Below are positions 16,345-42,950 of a stretch of DNA of 64,000 nucleotides, one piece after another. Both the position numbers and the translations under genes were made by a program. Origin of the DNA: an uncultured bacterium (GTDB lineage: Bacteria; Armatimonadota; HRBIN16); NCBI GenBank assembly GCA_964579145.1, contig CAZOGB010000012.1:1866-65865 (forward strand), in the 5' to 3' direction. Within the stretch, counting starts at the first letter, position 1. Every line of letters begins with the position of its first letter. The notes under the pieces were generated by a model that did no database searches, was not told the DNA's origin, and saw only the letters and a program-made list of their open reading frames with translations.

Positions 16345-16516
16345 AGATTCCTTTCAAGGTGGAACGGCTTTCTAAAAAGCGGGTACAGTGCCAGATTACT
16401 AGATTATTATACATGGCAGGAAGGGGCAGAGACAAGCAAAATCTTCTTAAACAGGAGCACTACACGAGGCAGGTGCAACACTCGCCTGCTTTCAGGGGTC
16501 ATTGCACAGAGGAAGG

Positions 16517-17887
16517 ATGAAAGCCGCGCTGATCATAACCCTGCTGGTCATCAGCCTTGGCACCGGTTATGCCCTGGCACAACGACCTGCTCGCCTCCTG
16601 CCGAAATGGAAACAGGAGTTCCAGCGTGCCCGGCAGGTGTGGGATAAGGGAGAGGCGGAGCGCGCGTTGATGGTGCTGGAAAAGGCATTTGCTCTGGCGC
16701 CAGACGACACCGCGCGCGCCCAGATTGCCTTCCGCTATGCCGACTGGAGCCGCCAGCTGGGACAATACGACACGGCAAGGCGATGGTACAGCAGGTGCAT
16801 CACCCTGTCGCCGCCGGGTTCCGACCTGATCCGTCGCGCCCGGGAAGGTTTGCGCAGTCTGTCGTCTGCCCGCCCCGTGCCCGTCTATCCCGTGCCGCCC
16901 GCTACCACCGTGCCCCCATGGACATCCGCTCCCGTCGGCGAAGTTCGCATGTTTCCATCGCTGGCCGTGCTGTTTGCGGTGTCCCTGCTGGTGTTGCTGA
17001 TGCTCCTGCAGTGGGCAAGCGGCTGGAGGCGTGAGGCGTTCTTCGCGCAGGTGGTACTCAGCATATTGCTCGGCGGAGCGATTACCATGATGGTTCCCTT
17101 TGGCGTGATGCTGCTGAGCCAGCGGTTTTCGCCCCAGCCCGACGACTGGATAGCGGGAATACTGACCATCGGCAGTATCGTCTGTATGGCGTTCGCTGCG
17201 CGCACCTGGCAACAGGGACAGCTACTGCGTGCCACCCCCCTCACCCGCTTGAGAAGCGCATCGCACGGCTTTTTGAAAGTGCGCGGAGTGGCGGAAGCCG
17301 CATTCGGCGTGCTTACCAGCCAGGTCGGCAACATCTCTGGGATTTACCTGAGCGAGCTTTCCGAGCGTTACGTGCGCCGTACCGAAACCTACTATGACTC
17401 GCAGAGCAAACGCTGGAAGACGCGCACGGTTTACCGATGGGAGACCATCTACAGCTTCACACAGGGCGTAAACTTCCTGCTGGACGACGGCACGGGCAAA
17501 GCCATCGTGGAAGTGGAAGGGGCGGAGTTCTACCCCGAACATGTGGCGCTGTTTTACAACTATCGCCCGGTGCGCTCGTTTCGATGGTTTGCCAGTGTGG
17601 GTGATGTGCGCACCACAATACGATACATCCCGCCGAATGCGACGGTGACCGTTTGGGCGCGATACTATGAACGCGACCTGCCCGGCACCGAACGCGATGA
17701 GATGCGCCTGCAGTACGACCGCTTCCACAAATGCATGGTGGTGCTGGAGGGAAATGAGGGTAAGGTGTACACGACCCGCACGGGAGCAGGGCTTGCGCTG
17801 GCGGTGCTGGGGGTGGTGATGCTTCTGGGAGTGATTTTTATCCTGCTGAACCCGGGCGCCGTTTCGGGGTACATCAACACCTATTGA
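16517..17887 (+). CDS. Membrane protein with an N-terminal TPR-like exported domain and a C-terminal beta-rich GIDE-like domain (LemA-associated)
   Basis: Signal peptide or TM MKAALIITLLVISLGTGYALA, several internal TM helices, and a C-terminal TM. The C-terminal region RTETYYDSQSKRWKTRTVYRWETIY...RYYERD resembles bacterial GIDE-domain proteins that pair with LemA. ATG at 16517 is preceded by GAGGAAGG. Confidence 0.45.
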   Translation: MKAALIITLLVISLGTGYALAQRPARLLPKWKQEFQRARQVWDKGEAERALMVLEKAFALAPDDTARAQIAFRYADWSRQLGQYDTARRWYSRCITLSPPGSDLIRRAREGLRSLSSARPVPVYPVPPATTVPPWTSAPVGEVRMFPSLAVLFAVSLLVLLMLLQWASGWRREAFFAQVVLSILLGGAITMMVPFGVMLLSQRFSPQPDDWIAGILTIGSIVCMAFAARTWQQGQLLRATPLTRLRSASHGFLKVRGVAEAAFGVLTSQVGNISGIYLSELSERYVRRTETYYDSQSKRWKTRTVYRWETIYSFTQGVNFLLDDGTGKAIVEVEGAEFYPEHVALFYNYRPVRSFRWFASVGDVRTTIRYIPPNATVTVWARYYERDLPGTERDEMRLQYDRFHKCMVVLEGNEGKVYTTRTGAGLALAVLGVVMLLGVIFILLNPGAVSGYINTY

Positions 17888-17901
17888 GGAGGTTCAACAT
17901 C

Positions 17902-18465
17902 ATGACAGGCATCTCAACCTTAGCGATTGTGCTGTTCATCATCGGAGGCGTGCTGGTGATATGGGTCATCGCCGCCTACAACAACCTGGTGAACCTGCGC
18001 GGACAGGCTCAGCGGGCATGGGCAAACGTGGACGTAGTGCTCAAACAGCGCTGGGACCTGATCCCCAACCTCGTGGAGACGGTGAAAGGCTATGCCCAGC
18101 ATGAACGGCAGATGCTGGAGCGCATTGCTGAACTGCGTGCGGTGGCACTGGGCGCCAAAGACCGCAAAGAACGCATTCAGGCGGAACAGGAAGCCTCGCG
18201 TCTGCTGGGCAACATCATCGTGTGGGGCGAGAACTATCCCGAGCTGAAGGCGAACGAAAACTTCCTGCATCTCCAGCGCACGCTGGCGGACCTGGAGGAG
18301 CAAATCGCCGACCGCCGCGAGCTGTACAACGAAGCCGCCACGAACTACAACGTGTACCAGAAGACCTTCCCGGCGGTGCTGGTAGCGCAGAGCGTCTGGG
18401 CGGAAGAGATGCCCCTGTTTGAGGCGGCTCCCCAGGAGCGAGAGGTGCCGAAGGTACAGTTTTAG
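17902..18465 (+). CDS. lemA: LemA-family protein
   Basis: AYNNLVNLRGQAQRAWANVDVVLKQRWDLIPNLVETVKGYAQHE is a canonical LemA block, preceded by one N-terminal TM helix. ATG at 17902 has GAGGAGG 9 nt upstream. Confidence 0.85.
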   Translation: MTGISTLAIVLFIIGGVLVIWVIAAYNNLVNLRGQAQRAWANVDVVLKQRWDLIPNLVETVKGYAQHERQMLERIAELRAVALGAKDRKERIQAEQEASRLLGNIIVWGENYPELKANENFLHLQRTLADLEEQIADRRELYNEAATNYNVYQKTFPAVLVAQSVWAEEMPLFEAAPQEREVPKVQF

Positions 18466-18550: not shown

Positions 18551-18662
18551 ACCTTGCGATTGGAAATCGCAGGCTACACAGAACAAAACCTGCTGGAGCA
18601 GGTTAGCCTCCACAGGAGGCTTCGCTGTGAGTAGCCCGCAACTTCCAGTTGCAGGGTTGCCT
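18551..18662 (+). repeat. Dispersed structured intergenic repeat, copy A (full length, plus orientation)
   Basis: Shares more than 80% identity with elements at 26169-26232 and 42831-42950 (minus). Conserved hairpins: cttgcgatt-gga-aatcgcagg, agcctcc-aca-ggaggct, cccgcaact-tcc-agttgcaggg. The ends form TIR-like repeats, caaccttgc and gcagggttg. Confidence 0.7.
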
Positions 18663-18865
18663 TCAGCGGTTCAAAGAAGCTGCCGGATGTCTACCCTGTC
18701 CCAATTTTGGTTCTACTTTGTAAAACTGGTATGATTTGCAGGAAAAGACAGCGGCATAGCCGAATGTTCCATTAGCAACCGAACAGGTGGTACGCACCAC
18801 CTATCTTGCTGAGATGCCGGGACGCAGTAAGTAAGGTTGCCGAAAACCTTTGAAGGAGGCTCTTG

Positions 18866-19756
18866 ATGGCACTGACCGACCGGTGTGACATCTTTGGCAG
18901 CGTACATGAGGAAGGCATCAATCGTATTGTCCGCCACCTCATGCGACAGCGCCCTTCCCTGTTCAACTATGGCACGGCGTTCTTCCTGCGAAACCCCAAC
19001 CTGCTGTGCGAGCGCATTCAGGCGGCACCCGAAGTCCTGCGGGCACATGACCCACTGCTGAGCGTACAGGATCCTGTTCCCATACTGGGCACAGCAATCC
19101 CGCTGGGACTGAACTGGTGCCTGCAGTTCACCGACCTGCAGATTGACTTCCACCCCAGCAACGTCTTTCAACTGCCTCGCGAGCTGGGGAATCTGCCCGC
19201 CCAACGATTTGCCCTTCGTATGAGGGGTTGTTTCGGGCTGGACTGCCCCTCGGAGGAGTTCATTCGCGAAATCCTGCCGCAGGTCGAGGCAGAAGAAGTT
19301 GCCCAGCGCGGCAAAGAGGTCTTCGGCACAAAGGAGCGTCAACCAGCTGCCCCCGCGAGGGAACCTATCGTGTTCCCCACCAGGAAACTGCAGTGCCTGT
19401 GCGTGGAGCTGTTTGCCGTACTGCACTTCGAGCGGGGCACAATCCCCGGCAATCCCCAGCAGTGGCTGAAGCTGCGGCTGGATGGTCTGGAGATTGTAGA
19501 CCTCGGTCCCGCTCCGCTGGAGGAGATGGTGGAATGCTACATCAGGGCGGTGCTGAGGCTGGGTATCCTGCCGAGGCTCAGCATGCCCATCGAGGCGATG
19601 GTGCTGAACATCACCGAGCTGATGCGCAAGCAGGGACTGGCAATCGGCGAGACCATCACGCTTCAACCCACGCCTGTGCCCGTCGGTGTGCCCAACAACC
19701 CGGCTGTAGAAGACGACCGGCTGAAGGCGTTTATCAATCTGGTGGTGGAGGTATAA
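18866..19756 (+). CDS. Hypothetical protein, first gene of a three-gene cassette of unknown function
   Basis: 297 aa with no recognisable motif. RBS GAAGGAGG upstream. Followed by the next gene after 3 nt. Confidence 0.7.
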   Translation: MALTDRCDIFGSVHEEGINRIVRHLMRQRPSLFNYGTAFFLRNPNLLCERIQAAPEVLRAHDPLLSVQDPVPILGTAIPLGLNWCLQFTDLQIDFHPSNVFQLPRELGNLPAQRFALRMRGCFGLDCPSEEFIREILPQVEAEEVAQRGKEVFGTKERQPAAPAREPIVFPTRKLQCLCVELFAVLHFERGTIPGNPQQWLKLRLDGLEIVDLGPAPLEEMVECYIRAVLRLGILPRLSMPIEAMVLNITELMRKQGLAIGETITLQPTPVPVGVPNNPAVEDDRLKAFINLVVEV

Positions 19757-19759
19757 CCG

Positions 19760-20677
19760 ATGGCACACTTCACTCTCGCCGTTTCCGAAGGAACCTTCCG
19801 GCGTTCGTTCGACCTGCTGAAGCGCAATCTCCGCTTCTCCAAAGCCGATCAGGCGAGCTTCGGCATTTTCGTGGCAGGCTACGACGTGCGAGCGCATCTG
19901 GAAGGAGGAACGCTGGACCTGCGTGCGGATAACACTATCCGCGTGAAGGAGCTGGATATCCGCTGGGACCGCCTGCGTTTCACGCTGGGCATCAACATCC
20001 CCGAAATCTGCGTTGGAGGCGGATGCATCAACATGCCCTGGCCCATCCCGGACATCTGCCTGCCCAGGGTATGCGTGTTCAGCGGCAACCCGGATATCTC
20101 TATCTCGCCCGACCTGGCAGCCTTCGTGGCACAGGAGGTCAGCTTTACCGGAACGGTGGTTGCCCGTTACTTTGACGCCTCCGTTCCGCTACCCTCACCA
20201 GACCTGTGCGCGCCGATACGCATCGAACCCCTGCCGGACCACAATCAGTGGCACATCCACATCGGCCCGCAAACCATCGACGTCGACCTGTTTGATTTCC
20301 CGGACGTTGTGGGCAACCTGATAGAAAACACCCTCAGCAACGCCATTCGCGCGATAATCCCCGGTGGATTTGTGCGCGACATCATCCTCGCCATCATCGG
20401 AGGAATTGCGGATTTCATCCGGTTCCTGCTCGACATCCCCGATGAGATCGACGAGTGGCTGAGCGACCTGTTTAACGTCAGCTTCGGCTTACTGGACTTT
20501 ATCGGCACGCTGGTGCTGGACTTCTTCAGCACGTGCAACCCGATATACCGCATCGACGACCCATTTGAGCTCTTGCCCGCAAGCAACGGGCTGATTCCGG
20601 TTCGAATCCCACTGCGCAACCTGAGCGTCCGCGTCAACGACGCAGAGATGGTTGCGGAAGTAGATATAGGAGGCTAA
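19760..20677 (+). CDS. Hypothetical protein, second gene of the cassette (Cys/Pro/Ile-rich)
   Basis: 305 aa. CVGGGCINMPWPIPDICLPRVCVFSG cysteine cluster. RBS GGAGG 8 nt upstream. 2-nt gap to the next gene. Confidence 0.7.
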   Translation: MAHFTLAVSEGTFRRSFDLLKRNLRFSKADQASFGIFVAGYDVRAHLEGGTLDLRADNTIRVKELDIRWDRLRFTLGINIPEICVGGGCINMPWPIPDICLPRVCVFSGNPDISISPDLAAFVAQEVSFTGTVVARYFDASVPLPSPDLCAPIRIEPLPDHNQWHIHIGPQTIDVDLFDFPDVVGNLIENTLSNAIRAIIPGGFVRDIILAIIGGIADFIRFLLDIPDEIDEWLSDLFNVSFGLLDFIGTLVLDFFSTCNPIYRIDDPFELLPASNGLIPVRIPLRNLSVRVNDAEMVAEVDIGG

Positions 20678-20679
20678 CC

Positions 20680-21393
20680 ATGACAAGCCAAAAGGCGCTG
20701 TTGAACCGCCCCGTCTTTCGACTGAGGGCATTTGACAGCGGTAACCTGACGGTACTGACCACGCTTATCCATCGTTTCGCCGAAGCGGGTTCCTATGACC
20801 TCTTTGTCCGACGGGGTGAGCGCGTGGTACATCGCGCTACGGTAAACGTGGTGCGCGAGACAGGCGCCCCACATCAGATCGATGTGGATATGGCGGACCT
20901 GGGTTCCGCAGAGAAAGGCTGTGAATGCGGGAAGCGCGAGGGATATACCCTTCGTGAAGGAGGGGTGATGTGCTTCTTCGTATCGAGAGGCAATGCGCGC
21001 TTCAAGGTGTCCGTCCAGCAGATTGGCGCCAAAGAGAAACGAACTCTGCTGGACAGTGCGAACTCCATCCCGGCTGGCGACCTGTTCGCAGTTACCCTGG
21101 TGTTGCCCGGCGCATACCGTGTGGTGAACACCGAAAGCAAAGCGGAGATGACGGTGGAGGTAGAGATGCCGGCGGGACCATACCAGATGGACCAGCCCAC
21201 CATTGTGGAGATTGGGCGCACGGGCAGATTTGGCTCACGCCGCGTTAGCATTATGCTGGGGCAATCGGTGGTGTTTCGCTGCGGGACACAGGCACGCATC
21301 CAGCTGGAGCTGGTAAAACCGCACGACATCATCCAAAAACGCGAGCAGGAAAAAGGACAGTTCACTGTACGCAAGTCCGAGACCAGCGACTAG
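20680..21393 (+). CDS. Hypothetical beta-rich protein, third gene of the cassette
   Basis: 237 aa. RBS AGGAGG upstream. CECGKREG motif. No recognised family. Confidence 0.7.
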   Translation: MTSQKALLNRPVFRLRAFDSGNLTVLTTLIHRFAEAGSYDLFVRRGERVVHRATVNVVRETGAPHQIDVDMADLGSAEKGCECGKREGYTLREGGVMCFFVSRGNARFKVSVQQIGAKEKRTLLDSANSIPAGDLFAVTLVLPGAYRVVNTESKAEMTVEVEMPAGPYQMDQPTIVEIGRTGRFGSRRVSIMLGQSVVFRCGTQARIQLELVKPHDIIQKREQEKGQFTVRKSETSD

Positions 21394-21489
21394 CGCACCC
21401 CCAAGCCTCCTGTACTGCCCCTCTCAACGCCGAGAGGGGCGCTCTCTCAAAAGTTTTTTCGGAAAAATATCTGGAATTGCCCAAAAAGG

Positions 21490-26168: not shown

Positions 26169-26272
26169 CAGGTTCAGCCTCCGCAGGAGGCTTTGTCATG
26201 GGTAGCCCGCAACTTTCAGCTGCAGGGATGCCTGCCGACTTGCAACTCGGCGGTTGCCTGCGAACCCGTATT
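26169..26272 (+). repeat. Dispersed structured intergenic repeat, copy B (5'-truncated, with a rearranged 3' tail)
   Basis: caggttcagcctccgcaggaggctttgtcatgggtagcccgcaactttcagctgcagggatgcct aligns to copies A and C. The 3' tail ggttgcctgcgaac resembles an inverted fragment of the element's 5' hairpin. Confidence 0.65.
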
Positions 26273-42830: not shown

Positions 42831-42950
42831 AGGCAACCCTGCAACTGGAAGTTGCGGGCTACCCAAAACAAAGCCTCCTGCGGAGGCTCCAACCTGCGTC
42901 AGCAGGTTTCGTTCGGTGTTGCCTGCGACTTCCAGCCGCAAGGACAGAAC
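42831..42950 (-). repeat. Dispersed structured intergenic repeat, copy C (full length, minus orientation)
   Basis: The reverse complement reads ccttgcggctggaagtcgcagg...agcctccgcaggaggct...gggtagcccgcaacttccagttgcagggttgcct. Hairpin 1 carries compensatory changes relative to copy A. Confidence 0.7.

Follow-up and report, generated by a model that had tools for sequence, protein, structure and literature searches.

We report here a three-gene cassette, designated A-B-C, which lies at positions 18866-21393 on the plus strand of a 64,000-nucleotide stretch of DNA (hereafter the window) from an uncultured bacterium of the Armatimonadota lineage HRBIN16 (GenBank assembly GCA_964579145.1, contig CAZOGB010000012.1). 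The cassette is an undescribed and strongly conserved three-gene module that is found in many phyla, and its core proteins, A and B, most likely belong to the tubular lipid-binding (TULIP) fold class. An earlier reading made from the letters of the window (hereafter the sequence-only reading) had described it as a tightly coupled unit of three unrecognizable proteins, each with a strong Shine-Dalgarno element, and had suggested that these form a complex. Below we present the evidence from gene organization, conservation, predicted folds and natural gene fusions that bears on these proposals, and weigh the alternatives to the mechanism to which they point.

Organization and conservation of the A-B-C cassette

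Gene A spans positions 18866-19756 and codes for 296 amino acids (aa) when read from its ATG (297 aa from a TTG at 18863), and it is followed by open reading frames (ORFs) of 305 aa for B (19760-20677) and 237 aa for C (20680-21393). The ORFs and our reading of the sequence both bear out the close coupling and the strong ribosome-binding sites recognized earlier. Only 3 nt (19757-19759) separate A from B and only 2 nt (20678-20679) separate B from C, while the start codons are preceded by GAAGGAGG 6 nt 5' of the ATG of A (18852-18859; sequence reading), GGAGG 8 nt 5' of the ATG of B (19747-19751) and AGGAGG 6 nt 5' of the ATG of C (20668-20673). The last two sites lie within the ends of genes A and B, respectively, and together with the short gaps this arrangement suggests coupled translation. 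Each ORF opens with the earliest start codon that the stop upstream of it allows; hence, there is no hidden N-terminal extension. On the same strand, 25 nt past the stop codon of C, the sequence displays one or more terminator-like GC-rich hairpins followed by AAAAGTTTTTT (21418-21459); a terminator scan delineated a stem at 21432-21448 with a T-run, and direct reading of the sequence offers an alternative stem between 21418-21425 and 21432-21439. This hairpin region marks the 3' end of the unit. Given the hairpin and T-run after C and the 400-nt spacer 5' of A, the three genes look like a single transcription unit. A consensus scan for sigma-70-type promoters upstream of A found none.

Sequence searches recovered 728 homologues of A, 258 homologues of B with 55-97% identity and, in a word-indexed search, 42 of C; yet, C follows B at every locus that reaches far enough. 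In an exhaustive profile search (E <= 1e-3) the A family comprises 432 clusters at 50% identity. All homologues of the three proteins are named 'hypothetical protein' in the databases. The ratios of nonsynonymous to synonymous substitution rates (dN/dS) against two relatives are 0.10-0.12 for A, 0.05-0.07 for B and 0.11-0.13 for C. Because they have hundreds of homologues and such low ratios (0.05-0.13 overall), A, B and C are real genes under strong purifying selection. Facing these conserved plus-strand genes are two long antisense ORFs, at 18713-19897 and 20874-21374, for which the best interpretation is that they are shadow ORFs without coding function.

The conservation of the arrangement was studied in a set of 58 loci, of which 53 came from a scan of one genome per species and five were fetched separately. 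Four of the latter derive from genomes already in the scan or from near-identical contigs, and the fifth is a contig with an esterase-A fusion (L058, discussed below). The A-B-C order is retained on a single strand with tight spacing in 55 of the 58, and the remaining three are cut by a contig end; the coupled unit proposed by the sequence-only reading is thus conserved at every locus where it could be checked. The cassette itself is conserved across the genomes of about 10 phyla. Its carriers include Armatimonadota, many Chloroflexota (Thermoflexus, Anaerolineae, Bellilinea, Levilinea and Promineifilum), Acidobacteriota, Deinococcota (Trueperaceae), Planctomycetota, Actinomycetota, Beta- and Gammaproteobacteria, one Bacteroidetes metagenome-assembled genome (MAG) and one MAG labelled Nitrososphaera. 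The cassette of this last, archaeal-labelled MAG is complete (L048, 2235-4686) and lies on a 15.6-kb contig with a GC content of 43%; the neighboring genes are uninformative and do not confirm that the contig is archaeal. Among the carriers found, only Bellilinea caldifistulae GOMI-1 (L031) is in culture. Identities rank in the order B > A > C, for instance 75%, 60% and 47%, respectively, in comparison with Thermoflexus. B, the most conserved of the three, has a mean column identity of 73% in its alignment and retains 60-77% identity between phyla. Recent horizontal acquisition in the present genome finds no support: the cassette does not differ from its flanks in GC content, and the plasmid and phage collections searched contain no copy of it. 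In sum, the module is self-contained, chromosomal and patchily distributed.

Sequence searches and predicted folds of A and B

None of the three proteins has a match past threshold in Pfam, NCBIfam, PADLOC or PHROGs, with only noise being recovered for C, and PADLOC yields no match for them even at E <= 1. A Pfam search at E <= 10 with all members of the alignments of A (48 sequences) and B (44 sequences) uncovered no consistent family; specifically, LBP_BPI_CETP, JHBP, Clostridium P47, DUF1439, DUF4403, DUF2140 and DUF2993 were all absent. The only recurrent Pfam match, that of HutF_N to B (21 members, best E 0.004), was judged to be spurious. Sequence and profile searches of the PDB were likewise empty for A and B, and a similarity of the Cys-rich block of B to the plant disulfide-rich peptides PDP-23/24 (E 0.3-1 in a PDB search) was dismissed as reflecting composition only. 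DUF2785, the family under which the Bdellovibrio TULIP protein TipA was annotated, is not matched by A, B or C. Further, A and B show no sequence-detectable relation that would point to paralogy (hhalign probability 0.2%). No protein-family library that we searched covers the A-B-C family and no paper describing it was found in the literature searched, in agreement with the earlier suggestion that it might be an undescribed system.

Structural models of A and B were built with AlphaFold2 (AF2) from family alignments, their secondary structure was assigned with DSSP, and they were compared with 350,542 PDB chains using Foldseek. The model of A has a predicted local distance difference test score (pLDDT) of 85 and a predicted template modeling score (pTM) of 0.78; the corresponding values for B are 77.6 and 0.66, with residues 180-240 being poorly defined (pLDDT 40-55). 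The twelve best PDB matches of A are all TULIP proteins, namely LBP, several entries of JHBP, the beta-carotene-binding protein, OrfX1-OrfX3, OrfX2, SPLUNC1 and BPIFA1. The four best matches of B are BPI (1ewf, probability 0.89; 1bp1) and LBP, and entry 4m4d is matched by both A and B. The matches are individually weak (E 0.007-0.1, template modeling (TM) scores 0.2-0.3), and two sequence-unrelated proteins give the same rare fold class independently. As TULIPs are a tiny minority among the 350,542 chains searched, the convergence of A and B on this fold is not a matter of chance.

The topologies of the two models are comparable, with both displaying a strand, helix A, four or five long strands, helix B and C-terminal strands in that order. 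In the model of A these elements are strand -1 (9-14), helix A (15-28), long strands at 84-94, 115-126, 175-193 and 196-211, helix B (216-237) and C-terminal strands at 263-268 and 285-295, with inserts in the form of a helix (130-152) and a length-variable loop (~153-172). In that of B they include strand -1 (3-9), helix A (10-23), long strands at 25-34, 37-54, 60-78, 124-138 and 163-178, and C-terminal strands within 263-303. This order of elements is the one described for a TULIP core accompanied by strands -1, +1 and +2, the strands that form the head-to-head dimerization meander of double TULIPs (PMC6791001; bioRxiv 10.1101/2025.09.09.675085). One extra strand before the core and two after it are present in the models of both A and B, and these may serve as their dimerization strands. 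Taken together, the models make it quite probable that A and B are TULIP-fold proteins of the BPI/LBP/OrfX type. The earlier description of the proteins as unrecognizable thus holds for the sequence libraries and does not hold at the level of the fold, where the Foldseek matches of A and B indicate a new family or variant of a lipid-binding fold rather than an unprecedented system.

Natural fusions and the probable pairing of A with B

Among the cluster representatives of the A family, 20 of the best 150 are single chains of 565-667 aa in which A is followed by B, never the reverse. In three Actinomycetota MAGs A-B is a single ORF of 623-661 aa with a linker rich in Gly, Ser and Pro. Examples of such natural fusions are those encoded at L054 7027-8897, L055 6963-8897 and L056 6912-8897, as well as proteins P0297, P0311, P0317 and others. 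In the linkers, an R-x-R-T-R-T-G-P motif recurs immediately N-terminal to the B domain. Given these fusions in many lineages, along with the signals for coupled translation, we hold it to be very likely that A and B form a physical complex, and to this extent the complex envisaged by the sequence-only reading is upheld. If the complex is combined with the fold assignment, the simplest reading is that of a split double-TULIP, which is most likely what the A:B pair represents.

A fusion of a different kind is encoded by locus L058 (1232-3277, protein P0285), where an N-terminal alpha/beta-hydrolase domain is joined to an A homologue and homologues of B and C follow. This domain has a GHSRGG nucleophile elbow and scores above the Pfam cut-offs for DUF676, a putative serine esterase family, and for PGAP1-like. 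The fusion to a DUF676/PGAP1-type esterase/lipase offers a hint of a link to lipids. Separately, protein P0430 (379 aa) combines the N-terminal half of an A homologue with a Spherulin4 domain, probably as the result of a frameshift or of chimeric assembly.

Conserved cysteines, inserts in B and lack of export signals

The alignment of A shows invariant cysteines at positions 48, 122, 127, 177 and 224. The unusual Cys-rich block noticed earlier in the middle protein is indeed present (CVGGGCINMPWPIPDICLPRVCVFSG, B residues 84-109), and it corresponds to the first of two inserts in B, a four-Cys hairpin at residues 84-105 (window positions 20009-20074). Its pattern is C84-x4-C89-x10-C100-x4-C105, and the four cysteines are kept across the family, being found in all 45 sequences examined, with a slight shift of the third in the most distant clade. 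The cysteines are arranged symmetrically about residues 94/95, with 84 opposite 105 and 89 opposite 100, and the model pairs residues 84-86 with 103-105; this geometry would suit a hairpin stapled by two cross-strand links. Elsewhere in B, Cys150 and Cys259 are both present in 32 and both absent in 13 of the 45 sequences, and never occur singly; this pair and Cys85/Cys179 of A are dispensable in whole clades. The second insert in B is an acidic, amphipathic four-helix region at residues 180-259 (window positions 20297-20536). It holds the most hydrophobic 19-residue stretch of the protein (Kyte-Doolittle hydropathy 2.09), inside which Asp and Arg are invariant.

In the alignments, no signal peptide, lipobox or clear transmembrane segment was found in A, B or C of any lineage. 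The conserved N-termini, namely MAFTD.., MAHLTVAVSE.. and ..LLNRxxF, are devoid of a hydrophobic signal region.

The C protein

C is beta-rich, as noted in the sequence-only reading, and basic, with 34 Lys and Arg residues against 27 Asp and Glu residues and a basic tail. The CECGK sequence singled out in that reading is present, and its candidacy as a functional motif was rejected: the surrounding residues, ~75-95, are variable and indel-rich, and the region is missing from many homologues. The nearly invariant core motif of C is instead P-x-G-D-L-F-A-V-T-L-V-x-P-G-x-Y. Sub-threshold Pfam matches are scattered over beta-sandwich families (CarboxypepD_reg, Cupredoxin_1, PKD, Ig_3 and NOMO1-like), and profile matches in the PDB to an Ig domain and to plastocyanin are weak (E 0.1-0.4). 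No internal repeats are detectable in C. We propose that it is an adaptor or partner of the A:B pair.

A proposed mechanism for the module

These observations allow a mechanism to be proposed. A and B would be two different single-domain TULIPs that pair head-to-head via their extra N- and C-terminal strands, and the resulting heterodimer would have the two-barrel architecture that BPI, LBP, CETP and TipA of Bdellovibrio have in one chain. By analogy with these proteins, the lumen of the A:B pair would hold one or more hydrophobic molecules, such as a lipid or an isoprenoid, that would be loaded or unloaded at a membrane. The third subunit, C, would be made from the same message and would be indispensable to the complex. 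It might be an adaptor for opening or regulating the tube, in the way that TipB acts on TipA, or else a membrane-targeting module, like the C2 domains that accompany the SMP-type TULIPs. Taken as a whole, this mechanism of a heterodimeric, split double-TULIP lipid binder with C as its partner is the account toward which we lean, with somewhat better than even confidence.

Three observations weigh against it. First, a plain TULIP does not account for residues 180-259 of B, which are its most conserved part and also the part that is least confidently modeled. Second, many of the conserved cysteines co-vary in pairs, such as Cys150/Cys259 of B, a pattern suggestive of disulfides and thus of a location outside the cytoplasm, whereas signal peptides were found in none of the proteins. 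Third, the esterase-A fusion is confined to a single contig, L058, from a Logan assembly.

A bolder version of the mechanism takes the lack of export signals at face value. A:B:C would then be the first prokaryotic TULIP machine without such signals, acting inside the cell as a heterodimeric lipid-transfer complex similar to SMP proteins or ERMES, with a beta-rich membrane-targeting or gating subunit. Its place of work would be the cytoplasmic side of the membrane or the space between internal membranes, and its hosts are bacteria and possibly one Nitrososphaera archaeon. We offer this version tentatively and regard it as rather doubtful. If true, it would extend to prokaryotes the intracellular, non-vesicular lipid transport by TULIPs that has so far been a eukaryotic hallmark, and it would have implications for how the eukaryotic SMP and BPI families arose. 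The extreme conservation of the module, together with its conserved cysteine pairs and the absence of export signals, suggests that its function is both precise and unusual. The A-B fusions and the thermophilic homologues from Thermoflexus and hot-spring Armatimonadota provide convenient material for structural and lipid-binding work.

Genomic context and alternative explanations

The best-surviving alternative is that the module encodes a membrane-attacking or toxin-accessory complex, in which A:B, like BPI or the clostridial OrfX/P47 proteins, would bind and destabilize the membranes of competitors or hosts. The proteins would be stabilized by disulfides and would leave the cell without the help of a signal peptide, for instance through lysis or in vesicles, and the membrane activity would reside in two elements of B, its Cys-stapled hairpin and its amphipathic helices. 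This explanation gains from the fold class, which is common to BPI, OrfX2 and OrfX3, and from the fact that OrfX and P47 themselves are not known to carry classical export signals. The cysteine patterns, i.e. the symmetric block in B and the exceptionless co-occurrence of Cys150 and Cys259 (32 against 13), would fit extracellular disulfides, the hydrophobicity of an amphipathic helix in B (maximum of 2.09 over 19 residues) would fit membrane activity, and the patchy spread over distant phyla at high identity would fit the horizontal dispersal of an accessory trait. The genomic context speaks otherwise. BLAST clustering of the flanking ORFs found no recurrent neighbor gene, and the nearest up- and downstream genes of 48 non-redundant cassettes belong to 96 different Pfam families, none of which is seen in more than three loci and none of which is a toxin family. 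In particular, genes for toxins, secretion, lysis or immunity never recur beside the cassette. The same survey shows that homologous cassettes lie neither in defence islands nor beside secretion genes, which had been considered as possible settings in the sequence-only reading. Moreover, there is no match to the P47 family or in PADLOC, the cassette is not found on plasmids or phages and has the GC content of its flanks, and the very strong purifying selection, with 60-75% identity between phyla, would be unusual for antagonism factors, which usually diversify. Hence, we consider a toxin-type role to be unlikely.

A second alternative is that A and B are cytoplasmic metal or cofactor proteins whose cysteines (Cx4C...Cx4C in B; Cx4C, CxC and single Cys in A) bind Zn or an Fe-S cluster in a redox, sensing or structural role unrelated to lipids, with the TULIP-like matches being a topological coincidence. 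Such a role would agree with the absence of export signals, with the five invariant cysteines of A and the universal four-Cys block of B, with the weakness of the individual fold matches, and with the acidic, helical nature of the most conserved region of B, which the TULIP model leaves unaccounted for. However, coincidence is hard to reconcile with two independently modeled proteins converging on the same rare fold class. With the B block placed by the model in the paired strands 84-86 and 103-105, its two Cys pairs would be spaced about 5 residues from each other along the hairpin, which would suit two cross-strand links better than one tetrahedral site, and the pairs Cys150/Cys259 in B and Cys85/Cys179 in A can be lost from whole clades. 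Neither a conserved redox or metallo-enzyme partner nearby nor a match to a metal-binding Pfam family was found. Accordingly, we see little likelihood in a metal-binding role. Finally, anti-phage defence or abortive infection, with killing of the cell by membrane disruption and C as the sensor, could be entertained for a compact, self-contained and horizontally distributed module of three proteins of unknown kind, one locus of which (L001) has TIR and NB-ARC/STAND genes 5-9 kb away, but it is very improbable, as there is no PADLOC match, the neighbors are overwhelmingly housekeeping genes that differ between loci, nuclease, NTPase and other enzymatic or sensor domains are absent, and the conservation is far above that typical of defence genes.

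Several features of the surroundings deserve a brief account. In the window the cassette is flanked on one side by LemA/GIDE genes, and its neighbors also include genes for an RRM protein and MutS2. The LemA/GIDE genes (16502-18465) code for a membrane protein of 461 aa with TPRs and a GIDE domain and for a LemA protein of 193 aa (Pfam E 3e-52); they overlap by 4 nt and form a pair of their own upstream of A. Within the 400-nt spacer between LemA and A is a 58-nt intergenic repeat with two hairpin-forming halves (18605-18662), other copies of which, 84% and 60% identical, are found at 26176-26233 and 42892-42949. Both features were correctly placed by the sequence-only reading beside the cassette, and neither qualifies as a conserved partner, both being lineage-specific neighbors. 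Only in L005, the closest relative and a member of the same class, is the LemA/GIDE pair syntenic with the cassette, and a functional link was rejected; the repeat, which is dispersed between genes, resembles repetitive extragenic palindromic (REP) elements and is unlinked to the cassette in other genomes, was rejected as a part of the system. As no neighbor recurs, the LemA/GIDE pair and the upstream repeat are therefore not part of the module.

In two MAGs the cassette has neighbors of some interest. In a Burkholderiaceae MAG (L003, 1855-5088; L004, 903-4136) a gene for a ThiF-YcaO fusion of 814 aa and a nitroreductase-family gene lie directly upstream of A-B-C. This pair resembles an azoline-forming peptide-modification set, and it is seen beside the cassette only in this one Burkholderiaceae lineage. 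In one Anaerolineae MAG (L001, 1-4464), and at no other locus, a TIR-domain gene and an NB-ARC/TPR STAND gene are located 5-9 kb upstream of the cassette.

Comparison with known TULIP systems

Prokaryotic TULIPs are few and poorly studied, comprising P47/OrfX, YceB, DUF4403, DUF2140, DUF2993 and TipA, most of which are exported. The present module adds two new sequence families that are outside the domain libraries (about 430 clusters at 50% identity for A). It would work like the known TULIP systems at the level of fold and architecture, while all tests of membership in their sequence families were negative.

The bacterial families YceB/DUF1439, DUF4403, DUF2140 and DUF2993/LmeA resemble A and B in possessing the -1/+1/+2 strands for BPI-like dimerization, with DUF4403 being a full pseudo-dimer like the A-B fusions (PMC6791001). 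Each of them, unlike A and B, has either a hydrophobic N-terminus or a lipoprotein signal, and their predicted location is extracytoplasmic (PMC6791001); their Pfam models do not match A or B.

The SMP TULIPs of membrane contact sites in eukaryotes, such as E-Syt and the Mmm1-Mdm12 pair of ERMES, are intracellular and, like the proteins of the module, devoid of signal peptides; as proposed for A and B, their single TULIP domains associate head-to-head into homo- or heterodimers, and they are accompanied by membrane-targeting beta-sandwich C2 modules (bioRxiv 10.1101/2025.09.09.675085). In contrast to this architectural likeness, no SMP protein is among the best fold matches, and a membrane-contact role in these prokaryotes is speculative.

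The clostridial neurotoxin clusters offer an example of different TULIP proteins from adjacent genes that form heteromers, as seen in OrfX1-OrfX3 (PDB 8bgm), and both OrfX3 and OrfX2 are within the ten best fold matches of A. The differences are that A and B do not match the P47 family, that no toxin family lies beside the 48 non-redundant cassettes and that the host range is distinct. OrfX2 also differs in its size of ~750 aa and its StART-like domain (PMC6791001).

The eukaryotic double TULIPs of the BPI, LBP, CETP and PLTP family include the best fold matches in the PDB (1ewf, 1bp1 and 4m4d for B; 4m4d for A), and their architecture, with two helix-in-sheet barrels joined by a central sheet of strands flanking each core, is the one predicted for the A:B pair. 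This family carries a conserved disulfide. Its members are, however, single secreted chains of ~456 aa; A and B give no match to LBP_BPI_CETP or LBP_BPI_CETP_C at E <= 10 and align to them with TM scores of 0.2-0.3, and B has two large inserts, the four-Cys hairpin and the acidic four-helix region.

The closest analogue is the TipA/TipB pair of Bdellovibrio bacteriovorus (bd2538/bd2539), a double-TULIP lipid binder and its beta-sandwich adaptor, whose genes overlap by 4 nt (bioRxiv 10.1101/2025.09.09.675085). Several differences separate the two systems. TipA has a signal peptide and is secreted into the prey, whereas A, B and C lack such signals; it is a single chain of 566 residues that forms homodimers; its structures are not among the 50 best Foldseek matches, and it has no sequence similarity to our proteins. 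TipB is a C2-like domain, to which C, with its 237 aa, bears no detectable similarity. Nevertheless, both are operons in which one or more TULIP genes, predicted ones in our case, are followed with near-zero spacing by a gene for a small beta-rich protein, and both would center on a double TULIP, made of one chain in TipA, of two in A plus B and again of one in the A-B fusions. The module would thereby be a double TULIP divided over two chains, for which the natural fusions offer a basis of comparison. TipB also sets a precedent for a partner protein that binds the tube and opens it, and the constant third subunit of the A-B-C module echoes the adaptor principle just reported for TipA/TipB.

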